A stretch of 10,175 bases of DNA from a virus. Both the position numbers and the translations under genes were made by a program. The stretch lies in the UHGV virus genome UHGV-0126067, one strand, 5' to 3'. Below the pieces are notes generated by a model. It did no database searches. It was not told where the DNA came from and worked only from the letters and a program-made list of their open reading frames with translations. Shown in pieces: positions 4,481 to 10,175 of this stretch (the first letter of the stretch is position 1; each line of letters opens with the position of its first letter).

Positions 4481-5973
4481 CCAACTCCGCAAGGTATGTT
4501 GTAGCTTGAGTAATCAATCTCTTTAGGATCTTTGATGTCTCGCATCTGTATTGCAAAACGCCTCATCATGTAGCCATAGCGAACAGCAGAAAGGATGTCG
4601 TCATTTAGCTTGACGATCTTCCCGTTCTCATCGCGGTGATACAGACGAAACTCTTCAAAGAATGGCTCGCAGGTGTTAAATACCTTGAAACGACCGTCGA
4701 GCATCATGTCGCGTATCTCTGCTATCCCGGGTTCGACCGCATTACCTCCATCAGGCCATGTTGCATGATCTGGCAACATGTCGAACCCAGCTTCGGCGTA
4801 TTGTTCCTTGAGCTGAGCGCCGCCTCCCTTTTCGTGCTGATGCCCGTCATGAGGCCAAGCCGTAGGGGTGTTTTTGCTCCATGCTTTAACAGCACTCCAT
4901 GCCTCTGTCGCCTTCTTCTGTTTGGCCTTCCAGACGCGAGAAAGATAAATCACGTCCTCGTCTTTATCCCACCAAAGCTGGATATGTGCCTGTGGGTGAT
5001 CCCATCCGAAGTCCATTGCATTGATGACGTAGAAGTGATCAGGACACTCGAACGGCTGACACTTAATCGTCTCTTCCGGTATCTGGAAGATTCGACCGCT
5101 ACCCATCGTAGGAATACCGCGAGCACGCGCCTCTCTCTCGTGCTCGGGATAGGATGCGATGATTTGCTCTTTCTGCTCGTCGGTATAGTGCTCAGCATCA
5201 TAGATGGTCATGTTGACCACTTTCTGCGACTTGCTGGGATTCTTCAGGAACTTGGTAACAACGTCAGACATCCCCATCAGCGGGGTAAACGTCAGAATTG
5301 AGAATTGCCCGTATTTGTTGGTACGGGTAAGACCTTCGCCATAAATGCTGTATGGTGGCTCTTCGTCAAACCACACGCCGTGGATTGTGTCACCCTGCCA
5401 GCGAGCACGGCCTTGAGAGTATGGTTTGAAGTAGCAGATTGAAATGCCATCTTCAACGCCATCAGCCGTGTGATGCTTAACCAGAAGATGATCAACAAGG
5501 TTCGGAAAGAAAGGAGACTTCTTCCAGCTAATGATGTCCTCTTTCGGTATGGAACCGTAGCCAGGCTCGTCATTCTCTTCGATACGACCGCACAGGATGC
5601 GTTGAGTCGTTTTGGTTACAGTCTCGTTTGTCTCGCCACCAATCCAAAAGACAACAGGCTCATAGAAACGCTTACCTTTCCACTCACCGCCATATTTACC
5701 ATCAGCAGGATAGCCTTTTGTGCCCGGATAACGCCCTGTAAGGTGAAACGCGACTTCAGCAGCACCAGTAAATGACTTACCAAGCTGGTTACCAGCCATA
5801 AAACATCGCTCTGGATAGTCATGTCCGGCGTCGATGAACTCACGCTGTTTGCTGTATGGCGTAAATTCATATAGCAGGTGTGTGTTCCGGTAGTTCTCTT
5901 CTTCTTCGAGTAGCTCGAGCAATTCGATTTGCTCTTCGTCGCTCAGGTTATCAAGAATCGCGTCCAGTTCCAC
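4477..5973 (-). CDS. terL: Terminase large subunit (P22 gp2-like)
   Basis: 498 aa with a Walker A-like motif AGNQLGKS near the N-terminus. Sits between small terminase and portal. The start is GTG at 5973 (no in-frame ATG before the Walker A) with AAGGAG about 10 nt upstream. Overlaps the 3' end of terS by 23 nt. Confidence 0.93.
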
Positions 5974-6820: not shown

Positions 6821-7078
6821 CTACTTCGTTTTTGCTTCCGCTCTTTTACGGCGGCGCTCTTCTTTCTTCTCGGCGTTTGCCATGTCCATGAATGCCTGCA
6901 TGATCGAGTTCCTCATCATGTAACTGACAAAGTGATGATTGACGCAGCCGTTGAGACGGAGTTGCTCGCCAAACTGATCAACCGAGGCCAGCACTTGCAT
7001 CATGTCCTTCTCGCCTTTCATGAACTCTGAGAAGTCGCGCCCTGCTCTGGAGGCGCATTCGATTACGCGATTACTCAT
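6821..7078 (-). CDS. Hypothetical 85-aa protein with basic C-terminal tail, translationally coupled to the upstream KilA-N ORF
   Basis: ATG 7078-7076 overlaps the TGA stop of the KilA-N ORF (ATGA). C-terminus is EKKEERRRKRAEAKTK. No family recognised. Confidence 0.5.
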   Translation of the reverse strand: MSNRVIECASRAGRDFSEFMKGEKDMMQVLASVDQFGEQLRLNGCVNHHFVSYMMRNSIMQAFMDMANAEKKEERRRKRAEAKTK

Positions 7079-7572
7079 CCCGGCAGCCCTGGGATCGTAA
7101 TCTGCAGCTGGTTAGCAAGGGTGTTAATCTCAGCGACCAATACAGGCTTCGTATAACGCCATGCAGCAAGTCCTTGTCCGCAGAAGCTCGCCATGTCCTT
7201 CTTCTGGTCAAACTCATGGCACTTCATGTTGAGCTGCGCACTTAAGCTGTTGCGATGCTGAAGCTCTCCGGTGAAGTAGTCATCGAGGACCTTATAGGCT
7301 GCGTACTTGAACCCGGGGTTTAGCCATGCCGCATAATCGTATGCAACAAACTTCCCGCCATAGGTTCCGCCGTGTACGCCGCGGGCAGTGAAAACCACAG
7401 ATTCGTGGTTTTTCTCCAGCTCGGCCAGGAACTCTTTGGTCTGCTTGTTTCGCAGATAATGGTAAGGCGATTCAGCATCACTTTTGCCACTGGCTTTCCA
7501 CATATCGGTGAGGCAGATCATGCCGTCTTCCCCGACACGGATTGGTTGATTGAAGAGGGTTAATGATTTCAT
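7075..7572 (-). CDS. KilA-N domain protein (165 aa)
   Basis: From ATG 7572 the N-terminus MKSLTLFNQPIRVGEDGMICLTDMWKASGK... fits the KilA-N pattern found in phage antirepressor/Bro-type proteins. AAGG lies about 11 nt upstream. The ORF-track start at 7626 is a TTG with no better support. Confidence 0.7.
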   Translation of the reverse strand: MKSLTLFNQPIRVGEDGMICLTDMWKASGKSDAESPYHYLRNKQTKEFLAELEKNHESVVFTARGVHGGTYGGKFVAYDYAAWLNPGFKYAAYKVLDDYFTGELQHRNSLSAQLNMKCHEFDQKKDMASFCGQGLAAWRYTKPVLVAEINTLANQLQITIPGLPG

Positions 7573-7719
7573 TTCGCTGATACCTTTTGGTGGTTGAGCC
7601 TGTTCTCGTAGATACGGGCAGCCCAAGAGCGGTCAGCGTTACCACTGCCCTATCTCAAGCTCTACCCCGAAAGGCTCTTGGTTGATATGCGCACGAGAAT
7701 GCGCGGGTTTACTGCGGGC

Positions 7720-7745
7720 ATAAAAAAGCCCCGCTATTGCGAGGC
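7720..7745 (-). terminator. Rho-independent terminator-like hairpin overlapping the Rz1 stop codon
   Basis: Minus strand reads GCCTCGC-AATA-GCGGGGC (7-bp stem with one G.U) followed by TTTTTTAT. Confidence 0.5.
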
Positions 7746-8057
7746 TCGTGATGATTCGATTTTCCTGATTGCCGCCTTATCCAGATTGCACTGCCCTAGC
7801 GCCGTATAGAGCTGAGCGTTCAACTCCAGACTTGCCTGCCACGTGAACGGAACCGCCATTCCGGGGATCGGCGTGTCTGCTGTCAGGTCAGCGCTTATCG
7901 GCACCACTGGGGATGGAACGTAAACTGTCTGCGTATTCCCGCAAGCTGTCAGCAGCGGCAGAAGGAACAAGCTGGTTAGCACACGGATCGCCTTCAAGCG
8001 CCTGCCTGATGTAGACAATGCGCGTCTCGCCTTTTTTGGCCAGTTCGTTCTTTGCAT
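7734..8057 (-). CDS. Rz1: Rz1-like o-spanin lipoprotein, overlapping the 3' half of Rz in another frame and extending past its stop
   Basis: Lipobox LLTAC-G preceded by a hydrophobic stretch (VLTSLFLLPLL). The mature part is proline-rich (VYVPSPVVPISADLTADTPIPGMAVP) and has no Asp at +2. Start is uncertain: ATG 8057 gives a long n-region; an internal TTG at 7997, preceded by AGGCAGG, gives a textbook signal peptide MKAIRVLTSLFLLPLLTAC. Confidence 0.65.
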   Translation of the reverse strand: MQRTNWPKKARRALSTSGRRLKAIRVLTSLFLLPLLTACGNTQTVYVPSPVVPISADLTADTPIPGMAVPFTWQASLELNAQLYTALGQCNLDKAAIRKIESSRASQ

Positions 8058-8274: not shown

Positions 8275-8711
8275 GACAGGAACAGAGCGCGCTCCGCCTC
8301 ACGCCGACGGGTCAGCCCATTCAGGACCTTGCCACCTGCTTTATTCCAGCGCAGGAACTCATCGGCTGCGCCAGCGTAATCACCGGCGTTGAGTTTTCGC
8401 AGGAGAGTCGATGTCGATAAAGATCGGGCTCCGAGGTTATAGGTGAACGACACCAGGGCGTCGAATTGCCCCTGAGTCAGACCAACTTTAACCAGGCGAG
8501 ACACGTCGCTTTCGTAGCTGACAAGTCCGGTCTTCAACAGGCGCTCTGCCGTTTCCTGATTAATTGTCATACCGGCACGGATCGGTTTACCGTCGACAGG
8601 CTGAGTCCAGCCATAGCCAATCGTCCACACTCCGACGCTGTCCTGGTACGCGGTAAGCTTGCAGCCTTCGAACTCTTTGATCAGGGCAATGCCTTTATCA
8701 CTGGTTTGCAT
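8271..8711 (-). CDS. Endolysin, T4-lysozyme-type muramidase (P22 gp19-like)
   Basis: 146 aa. Catalytic E/D/T spacing of T4-type lysozymes (EFEGCKLTAYQDSVGVWTIGYG). C-terminus RRREAERALFLS resembles the P22 gp19 C-terminus as I recall it. Follows the holin with a 14-nt overlap. Confidence 0.9.
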   Translation of the reverse strand: MQTSDKGIALIKEFEGCKLTAYQDSVGVWTIGYGWTQPVDGKPIRAGMTINQETAERLLKTGLVSYESDVSRLVKVGLTQGQFDALVSFTYNLGARSLSTSTLLRKLNAGDYAGAADEFLRWNKAGGKVLNGLTRRREAERALFLS

Positions 8712-9015
8712 TCTTCATCCCCGTCAGACGTTCCCAGAAATAGGTCAGAGCCACGGAGCCCATCGCCCCGCTAATGCCTGACGTAACCAGAATCATGTAA
8801 AGGCTCAGCCCACTTTCAACGCTGATCAGTCCACCAATGAGACCGGTAAAGCCGGACACTGCAATTTGTGCCAGCGCATTAATCCAGCTCCAGGTGGCTT
8901 TGTTCTGCTTAACGTCAATAAGGTATCGGACCAGGCCGCCCCAGCATGACAGAGCAAGGACAATCAGCCATGACACTCCGGCAATGCTTTCTTTATCTTG
9001 CATACGTTTAGCCAT
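8698..9015 (-). CDS. Holin, class I (three predicted TMDs), possible dual-start holin/antiholin
   Basis: 105 aa with three hydrophobic segments (SIAGVSWLIVLALSCWGGLV; WSWINALAQIAVSGFTGLIGGLI; LSLYMILVTSGISGAMGSVALTYF) and a charged C-terminal tail. N-terminus is M-A-K-R-M. Strong SD GGAGGTGA sits immediately upstream of ATG 9015. First gene of the lysis cassette. Confidence 0.8.
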   Translation of the reverse strand: MAKRMQDKESIAGVSWLIVLALSCWGGLVRYLIDVKQNKATWSWINALAQIAVSGFTGLIGGLISVESGLSLYMILVTSGISGAMGSVALTYFWERLTGMKNANQ

Positions 9016-9137
9016 ATCACCTCCGAAAGAACGGGGTGCTGTTTGTAGTAAGGGATCAGGCCCTCGGGACGATTTAACAAGAAGGCATGTCGATGATGGT
9101 TCCCGGGACCTTAATATTTACCTCAAAGAGGCATATT

Positions 9138-9734
9138 TTAATTTTGGCAGCGTGGTTGGCTCACTTTGAGAGACTCGATCTTCTTGATAAGCCCTCTGTG
9201 GAGCTGTGGATGCAACTGATCGCAGAGACTCTTATAGCCATGCGCAAGACTCATTTTTTCATTGAACCAAGCGAGATGGGCAAGGTATGGGTCTTCGAAC
9301 ATACCTAAATGCTTGTTCTTACCATTAACCTTTATATCGGCCTGAAATTTTGTTGAGCCTTTTTTTAGGCAAACGCCAATGGGATAATCACCCCTCCGAG
9401 CACCCCTTGAGGTAACAAAGCTATTGAGCGCCTGCGGGATAAAGATGCATGTTTTACTGGAATAAACTTTGTTACCGGGGAAAAGGAGATCCTTATCAAG
9501 CTCACACCCAGGAATGTATTTCGCGTCGTAAAACTTTTTAAATTCGCTAAAAAGATGCCACTCTTCATCAACAACACATCCTTCATAGCTAGGCCTGTAA
9601 CAGACCCCCTCCCCATAACATCTCTTAAGCATCCCATGCCAAACTCTATATGCTCTTATTTTCTTCCCATCCACAAAAACAGGATGCACATCTAACTTTC
9701 CAACTCCGAAAATAAGACTTTCATTTGATTTCAT
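9138..9734 (-). CDS. Accessory (moron-type) protein, 198 aa, with AP2-like C-terminal signature; function unknown
   Basis: ATG at 9734 (MKSNESLIFGVGKLDVHPVF...) with AAAGG upstream; the ORF-track start at 9821 is a TTG inside an inverted repeat. GC is visibly lower than in flanking genes. C-terminal segment GVCLKKGSTKFQADIKVNGKNKHLGMFEDPYLAHLAWF fits an AP2-type pattern. N-terminal domain is Cys/Trp-rich (WHGMLKRCY...CVVDEEWHLFSEF) and unassigned. Confidence 0.65.
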   Translation of the reverse strand: MKSNESLIFGVGKLDVHPVFVDGKKIRAYRVWHGMLKRCYGEGVCYRPSYEGCVVDEEWHLFSEFKKFYDAKYIPGCELDKDLLFPGNKVYSSKTCIFIPQALNSFVTSRGARRGDYPIGVCLKKGSTKFQADIKVNGKNKHLGMFEDPYLAHLAWFNEKMSLAHGYKSLCDQLHPQLHRGLIKKIESLKVSQPRCQN

Positions 9735-9750
9735 GGTTGCGTTTACCTTT

Positions 9751-9837
9751 CTTTGAAATGAACCTTTGCCGCAATGGAAATCAGCCCGTCGAGGCTCGCC
9801 AGCACTAACTGACTTCCTCAAAGGCTCATTTCAAAGG
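9751..9837. repeat. 18-19 bp inverted repeat (arms 9751-9768 and 9819-9837) in the leader of the accessory ORF
   Basis: Plus-strand arm ctttgaaatgaacctttg against the reverse complement of caaaggctcatttcaaagg: one DNA mismatch, which is a G.U pair in the minus-strand RNA. A 50-nt spacer holds a small inner hairpin (AGCC-TCGACG-GGCT). Confidence 0.75.
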
Positions 9838-9877
9838 GTGTGGTTCGACGTGGTTAGAGGCGCATTGCGGTGCGCTG

Positions 9878-9904
9878 AAATAAAAAAGCCAGCGACAGGC
9901 TGGC
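9878..9904 (-). terminator. Rho-independent terminator
   Basis: Minus strand reads GCCAGC-CTGTC-GCTGGC (perfect 6-bp stem, 5-nt loop) followed by TTTTTTATTT. Confidence 0.7.
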
Positions 9905-10120
9905 AATGTGAGGGTAAGGCAATGTCGGCTCTCTGGCCGAAGGGTCCCAGGTAGTGGGTTTAGTTTGTGGTGGCCGGCGCTGCTATCCGGCATTCACGGC
10001 TATCGCTTTACGACGCCATCAGGACATTCACCACAACGAGGATCGCTTTGCCGTGCCAGGGAAATGTACCTGGTCTCACCGGGATGCCGTCACATACTCA
10101 AAGCGATTTCCGTTATGCAG

Positions 10121-10153
10121 AAATGAAAAAGCCACCGGCGTTAACCAGTGGCT
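10121..10153 (-). terminator. Rho-independent terminator, candidate late-operon tR'-like terminator
   Basis: Minus strand reads AGCCACTGG-TTAACG-CCGGTGGCT (9-bp stem with one G.U) followed by TTTTTCATTT. Confidence 0.65.
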
Positions 10154-10175
10154 CTAAATTATTGGTGATGGCTCA

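Follow-up and report, generated by a model that had tools for sequence, protein, structure and literature searches.

The open reading frame at positions 9138-9734 (minus strand) of the window, by which we mean the whole stretch of 10,175 nucleotides analysed, encodes a 198-aa protein belonging, by its sequence, to the published IPA-HNH family, and is probably a free-standing gene of the homing-endonuclease type, which would cut and be copied in by repair as a cassette together with its leader. This reading is built on the observed domain architecture, family membership, conservation, purifying selection, insertion/empty-site polymorphism and leader structure. The window covers the late region of a P22-like (CUS-3/Sf101-type) phage or prophage on the minus strand, with the gene order: two terminators, ORF 9138-9734, holin, lysozyme, Rz/Rz1, KilA-N, orf85, DUF2560, terS, terL, portal and scaffold.

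The gene and its membership in the IPA-HNH family

ORF 9138-9734 was confirmed as a real gene of 198 aa starting from an ATG, and the same start methionine is used in its homologues. Compared with an 87%-identical homologue the dN/dS is 0.10, indicating that the gene is under purifying selection and that the coding conservation on which the earlier note had made its case depend does exist. The low GC content that the same note had estimated by hand was also recovered: 0.425 in the ORF against 0.514 in the remainder of the window, with GC3 values of 0.43 and 0.50-0.68 for the ORF and the neighbouring genes, respectively. A TTG start at 9821 (227 aa) was considered and rejected, given its overlap with the conserved hairpin of the leader and the fact that the homologues begin at the ATG.

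The protein and its close relatives are labelled "hypothetical protein" at the NCBI (P0002). Its PHROGs match was phrog_953, 'HNH endonuclease' (E=1e-70). The Pfam scan returned zero families, the NCBIfam scan one chance-level match far under the curated cut-off, and the PDB sequence search nothing; PADLOC gave no defence-system match for the ORF, and no tRNA or group I intron adjoining it was detected by ARAGORN and Rfam.

The IPA-HNH homing endonuclease genes (HEGs) were defined from ICP1 gp59, gp115/116 and gp209 (Barth, Dunham & Seed 2023, PMC10448857): HHsearch detects their N-terminal domains, which have diverged beyond the reach of Pfam HNH_3, their C-terminus is an AP2 domain, and they are enriched in ICP1, Barba phages and some Pseudomonas phages. 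In that work the family members sit close to replication and structural genes of lytic phages, and neither catalytic residues nor temperate phages are mentioned; no other paper using the family name was found. The tblastn match of the 198-aa protein in ICP1 falls within GP209, and BLASTP against gp209 (E=5e-19, residues 15-191) gave a full-length alignment with all motifs in common, so the ORF is, on sequence grounds, a member of this family. Besides homology to a founder, the protein has the C-terminal AP2 domain and an N-terminal domain without an HNH_3 match yet HNH-like by sensitive methods. With tblastn, relatives turned up in 1,528 phage records, mostly of Vibrio (ICP1), Pseudomonas and Rheinheimera phages, a single genome often holding several of them, and an exhaustive profile search gave 6,171 representative clusters at E<=1e-30. 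The homologues are stand-alone proteins of about 190-215 aa. Family members of 400-570 aa were also observed (P0102, P0104, P0105, P0110, P0218 and P0223 among them), matched by the profile in two stretches; they may have arisen by tandem duplication or fusion of IPA-HNH units.

Domain architecture and putative active site

The C-terminus of the protein is an AP2 DNA-binding domain (residues ~118-165, positions 9240-9383, minus strand), followed by C-terminal helices. An AP2-like C-terminus had been proposed from a residue pattern, and it is now borne out by several comparisons: PF00847 was matched by 12 of the 31 homologues, the family profile matched the AP2 domain of WRI1 (E=2e-5), and HHalign placed residues 101-170 on the canonical HNH_3-AP2 endonucleases (98.4% probability, E=1e-14). 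The fold expected for AP2/ERF (PF00847), a three-stranded sheet packed on a helix, was found in the 198-aa protein together with the family-model match.

The N-terminal domain (residues 1-112, positions 9399-9734, minus strand) consists of a helical sub-domain with a W..M..RC motif followed by a beta-beta-alpha unit, whose putative beta-beta-alpha-metal core (residues 77-108, positions 9411-9506, minus strand) is supported by conservation and HHalign. The invariant block L-D-K-D-x5-N-K-x-Y-x4-C-x-F-x5-N adopts, in two independent models, the order strand, omega-loop, strand, helix (predicted strands 77-80 and 97-100 and helix 101-108, pLDDT 87-97; pLDDT of the AF2 model of the 198-aa protein, 93): D80-K81-D82 at the end of strand 1; N88, K89 and Y91 in the omega-loop; C96 in strand 2; and N104 in the helix. 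Residues D80, K81, D82 and N104 were present in 148/148 mutually diverse representatives, and Y91 and C96 in 147 each; histidine occupied position 81 in none of the 148, all of which have Lys81. The other conserved cysteines of the family are C39 (134/148) and C53 (133/148), with no obvious fourth ligand. Each of these two was replaced in about 10% of the representatives.

The relationship of this domain to HNH nucleases is a distant one. HNH_3 was absent from the families matched by the 31 homologues, and HHalign of the N-domain alone against the HNH_3-AP2 profile detected no similarity; the protein lacks the D-H histidine of canonical HNH/HNH_3 (PF13392) and has no significant Pfam match. 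In the HHalign alignment, N104 was aligned with the metal-ligand asparagine of HNH_3, and a weak BLASTP match (E=0.026), suggestive only, set ELDKD on EIDHI and K81 on the catalytic histidine. The best structural match of the modelled N-terminal half was PacI, an HNH enzyme with tyrosine instead of histidine. A nuclease-like domain of the His-Me-finger (HNH) type, though a very divergent one, makes up the N-terminal half; lysine replaces its catalytic histidine, and the invariance of D-K-D, Y91 and N104 is the pattern of a maintained active site. The earlier note was thus right that no canonical HNH signature is present, and mistaken in finding no nameable motif in this half, which carries that of the divergent IPA-HNH finger.

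These residues suggest a mode of action for what is presumably an active nuclease. The AP2 domain would recognise a DNA site and the His-Me-finger domain would cut nearby; Asp80 or Asp82 plus Asn104 would hold a single metal ion, and Tyr91 in the omega-loop, helped by Lys81, would activate or replace the attacking water, as the tyrosine does in PacI.

The cassette, its leader and its expression

The ORF is part of a cassette, about 765 bp long, which comprises a 140-nt leader, the ORF and a 3' tail and is inserted between the late terminator and the downstream neighbour of the ORF, the holin gene (8698-9015, minus strand). In several E. coli prophages both flanks were matched and about 765 bp were missing; the flanks are contiguous in six empty sites (L005, L004, L039, L048, L050 and L069), and the occupied sites are those of the window and L054. 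In E. coli G3/10 (L005) the two flanks abut, window 9960-9875 corresponding to L005 1501-1587 and 9114-8144 to L005 1583-2553. The empty site reads …TTTTTTATTTCAGG/CTCCGGGAACCATC… and the window …TTTTTTATTTCAG/CGCACC… (leader and ORF) …TATTAAGG/TCCCGGGAACCATC…, slashes marking the junctions. Comparison of these junctions bounds the insertion at about 9109/9114 to 9874, the tail that follows leader and ORF measuring 23-29 nt. By junction mapping, the cassette-specific tail (9109-9137, minus strand) extends from the stop codon to the point where homology with the empty-site prophages resumes, and the right flank (9034-9108) is common to the empty-site prophages and to prophages with a different HEG. 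The alignment of related genomes proposed in the earlier note thus identifies the ORF as an insertion, and its view that a horizontally acquired gene occupies the slot between late terminator and holin stands, given related prophages in which the site is empty.

The same slot has other occupants. A canonical 168-aa HNH_3-AP2 gene lies in L031 exactly between the leader and the right flank; homology with the window stops at 9739 and resumes at 9114, so that the two differ by an ORF-for-ORF swap behind a common leader, and the L031 cassette is flanked by a TTTCAGG repeat. The HNH_3-AP2 gene of L032 is arranged likewise. L032, a single viral contig, also holds two copies of the leader, at 2643-2786 (Q side, followed by the HNH_3-AP2 gene) and further downstream at 4832-5049, and such internal repeats could lead to rearrangement. 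In L054 the cassette of the window is found at 97.6% identity (9034-9875), with a holin gene and upstream DNA that cannot be aligned. The prophage of E. coli MLI104K1 (L006 1588-2765) has the same junctions with other cargo, namely a truncated second Q gene (a pseudogene) and an oppositely oriented DUF2441 gene. The Q-to-holin slot is a general cargo hotspot. The gene is present or absent at a fixed site of genomes that are otherwise homologous, a polymorphism characteristic of HEGs. Sites that are empty, sites held by another endonuclease gene and an island of identity within diverged surroundings are together what homing predicts.

The leader moving with the ORF (9735-9874, minus strand) is conserved and structured, as seen from identity across phages, covariation and fold z-score (z=-3.3). 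It comprises a small GC hairpin (about 9860-9875) and a long nested hairpin (9751-9836), followed by an AAGG Shine-Dalgarno sequence and the ATG. It is about 90% identical to the DNA preceding different genes in unrelated phages (copies at L001 3001-3140, L002 3001-3149, L003 3001-3134 and L007 1501-1631), and leader plus terminator tail recur in no fewer than about 120 viral contigs and 75 phage records. Among about 126 copies at 129 loci, the leaders downstream of spanin genes are followed by a Rha or KilA-N gene, and those downstream of Q by an HNH_3-AP2 or IPA-HNH gene and then the holin. In 62 non-redundant copies, in which the central 22 nt are invariable because the search pattern fixed them, the 34 predicted pairs, mainly forming one long nested hairpin, were 99.4% paired, against 34-50% with the partners slid. 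Compensatory cells numbered 19, compared to 3.2±1.4 after shuffling (none of 500 shuffles reached 19); pair 72/129 was seen as U-A, G-C and C-G, and many A-U to G·U changes keep pairing in the sense strand only. Rfam gave no match for the leader.

In Salmonella infected with P22, an 89-nt RNA named P22F builds up, with its end 6 nt ahead of the rha ATG (Naaz et al. 2026, PMC13397905); that paper assigns it no function and describes neither a conserved structure nor a connection with HEGs. Alignment with the P22 leader places its equivalent at 9741-9830 (minus strand), and the long hairpin of the leader is by this alignment a homologue of P22F. A role in processing, stabilisation or translational control of potentially toxic late genes would be a guess. 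Work on rha and IHF was reportedly done by Henthorn & Friedman in 1995.

A second element of similar layout precedes the KilA-N gene (7075-7572), at 7557-7747 on the minus strand: a terminator (7747-7726), a small GCGCA…UGCGC hairpin, a long nested hairpin, a Shine-Dalgarno sequence and the ATG, diverged in sequence (fold z=-2.8). It was the top independent match of the covariance model, but at 10 bits and E≈0.25 this is not significant, and only a shared architecture with the HEG leader is claimed. The KilA-N/ORF11CD3 protein encoded there matched, over a short stretch, the PADLOC candidate defence model PDC-S22 (E=2e-8).

Directly upstream of the leader lies an intrinsic-terminator-like hairpin with a T-run (9888-9904, minus strand), whose tail contains the left cassette junction (after TTTTTTATTTCAG), and a further late-region terminator-like site is located at 10128-10155 (minus strand). 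A consensus scan of the coding strand from 9735 to 10175, leader included, found no sigma-70-like promoter. Since the gene has no promoter-like site of its own and terminators precede it, it would be expressed solely from the Q-antiterminated late transcript, by which time several phage genomes would be present in the cell.

Other features of this region were recorded. A unit formed by the terminator T-run, ATTTCNG and a small hairpin follows each of the three coding-strand terminators (9860-9894 and 10103-10137, repeat D2; compare 7695-7747), the two upstream copies sharing 74% identity, and looks like a repeated punctuation of the late operon. The stretch between both upstream terminators (9875-10038), present in several E. 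coli prophages and 93% identical to DNA of Enterobacter phage CobraSix annotated 'hypothetical protein', may be a non-coding late leader; an inverted repeat (10027-10050/10099-10122) was reported with it.

Explanations, significance and likeness to known systems

Of the three options offered in the earlier note (a homing-endonuclease-like element, a DNA-binding regulator or something uncharacterised), the homing-endonuclease-like element is favoured. The nuclease would cut cognate genomes lacking the cassette, and recombinational repair would copy the cassette in, carrying flanking DNA along; homing of this kind would agree with the distribution of occupied and empty sites. More tentatively, and with rather less confidence, IPA-HNH could represent a large unrecognised His-less His-Me-finger variant of HEGs (Tyr91/Lys81, PacI-like) riding a portable, structured P22F-type leader in lambdoid phages; late genes whose products may be toxic (Rha, KilA-N, HNH-AP2 nucleases) would then share this leader as a post-transcriptional 'adaptor', and it might also supply the conserved homology, or even a target, for the replacement of one endonuclease gene by another at the same site.

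The cassette might instead move by ordinary homologous or microhomology recombination at lambdoid module boundaries, the gene product being uninvolved. This is a live rival, because the junctions lie in sequences common to many lambdoid phages: the left one in the widespread terminator tail and leader enumerated above, the right one in sequence common to many prophages. Unrelated cargo (DUF2441) at the same junctions and the TTTCAGG repeat around the L031 cassette also agree with it. We consider it rather unlikely, since it leaves unexplained why the Q-side leader slot is usually filled by endonuclease genes of two families instead of random genes, and why a gene without other evident role is under strong purifying selection. 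Host-benefit cargo carried for lysogenic conversion (a moron), analogous to stx, which occupies the same slot, would fit the low GC and the accessory position between Q and holin. This analogy, drawn in the earlier note, found no support: the consensus scan showed no promoter-like site upstream, two terminators precede the ORF, the protein is of a DNA-binding/nuclease type with no defence-model match, and the IPA-HNH family is abundant in strictly lytic phages (PMC10448857). A moron is therefore highly improbable, and with no promoter-like site found, upstream terminators and relatives mostly in lytic phages the ORF looks like selfish DNA rather than cargo benefiting the host.

Two further explanations, both unlikely in our estimation, concern the protein itself. 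Plant AP2 factors and the MH1/Smad factors are nuclease-derived. The 198-aa protein might likewise have a catalytically dead nuclease domain and act as an AP2-based DNA-binding repressor or activator derived from a homing endonuclease; its canonical general-base histidine is missing, and elsewhere the leader stands before genes for DNA-binding regulators, Rha and KilA-N. Members of other His-less His-Me groups are regarded as DNA binders without activity (PMC5714182). On the other side, PacI, the closest fold, is an active enzyme that lacks the histidine, and more than 140 highly divergent relatives all retain D-K-D, Y91 and N104, and with them the metal-ligand asparagine. Multiple copies in lytic genomes and presence/absence polymorphism are, moreover, the behaviour of a selfish element. 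The other explanation, of comparably low probability, is that an active nuclease is kept for competition with co-infecting or resident related phages or satellites, like Odn of ICP1, a domesticated HEG-derived nuclease acting in phage-satellite conflict (PMC10448857). Domestication of this type is documented in ICP1 (PMC10448857), late expression beside the lysis genes would expose the DNA of competitors, and the alternative HEGs in the same slot of related prophages are compatible with an arms race. Against this, PADLOC gave no match, the protein has the plain architecture of its family with no fused satellite-derived DNA-binding domain found, and the identity-island and empty-site patterns are just as homing predicts.

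Under the homing-endonuclease reading, the cassette gene is a real, well conserved and fairly ordinary kind of selfish phage DNA. What is modestly new is the universal Lys-for-His substitution with a PacI-like tyrosine, the leader-plus-HEG cassette with its allelic series, and, for the P22F-type leader, its structural conservation and the genes that it accompanies. The protein and its close relatives, annotated as "hypothetical protein", can be named IPA-HNH/AP2 homing-endonuclease-like genes. If the proteins are active, PacI-type tyrosine chemistry extends to a major class of mobile nucleases (>6,000 clusters with D-K-D…Y…N and no His), possibly including new AP2-guided cutters. The Q-to-holin slot of P22-like/lambdoid prophages behaves like a contested landing site: genes of two endonuclease families, as well as other cargo, alternate there at identical junctions. 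This agrees with a published proposal in which nuclease genes mark the limits of genetic exchange. Through the leader, the orphan small RNA P22F gains structural conservation and a genomic logic.

Among known systems, the closest is IPA-HNH itself, represented by ICP1 gp209: the two share the motifs W..M..RC, LDKD, GNK.Y, C.F.P...N.F and P.GV, a length of about 200 aa, an N-domain too divergent for Pfam HNH_3 and the C-terminal AP2, with a taxon distribution covering ICP1, the Rheinheimera 'Barba' phages and Pseudomonas phages. The copy in the window differs in belonging to a temperate P22-like/lambdoid prophage, between late terminator and holin and behind a structured leader. Free-standing HNH_3-AP2 homing endonucleases were reportedly noted as a class by Magnani et al. 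in 2004. Canonical examples (Klebsiella phage RothC XDI99237, E. coli phage CharmingMan XNS38316) share with our protein the two-domain logic, a homologous AP2 with its preceding helix, and the same slot behind the same leader; however, they match Pfam HNH_3 and have a D-H…N…N motif, whereas the 198-aa protein has D-K-D.

PacI (PDB 3m7k/3ldy, His-Me finger 'group 20') is a His-Me finger without the catalytic histidine, in which an omega-loop tyrosine is proposed as general base or nucleophile and the metal is held by one Asp and one Asn (PMC5714182, PMC4081073). The modelled 198-aa protein resembles it in its beta-beta-alpha core with an omega-loop, and the candidate counterparts of the PacI residues, Y91, D80, D82 and N104, are near-invariant. 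In sequence, however, no similarity between PacI and the protein was detectable. PacI, a homodimer, is a restriction enzyme that lacks an AP2 domain and carries two Cys4 zinc sites, while the IPA-HNH family has one near-invariant cysteine and two others at about 90%. Finally, the leader of the window differs from the P22F/rha leader in its setting, preceding an endonuclease gene in the Q-to-holin slot rather than rha after the spanin genes.
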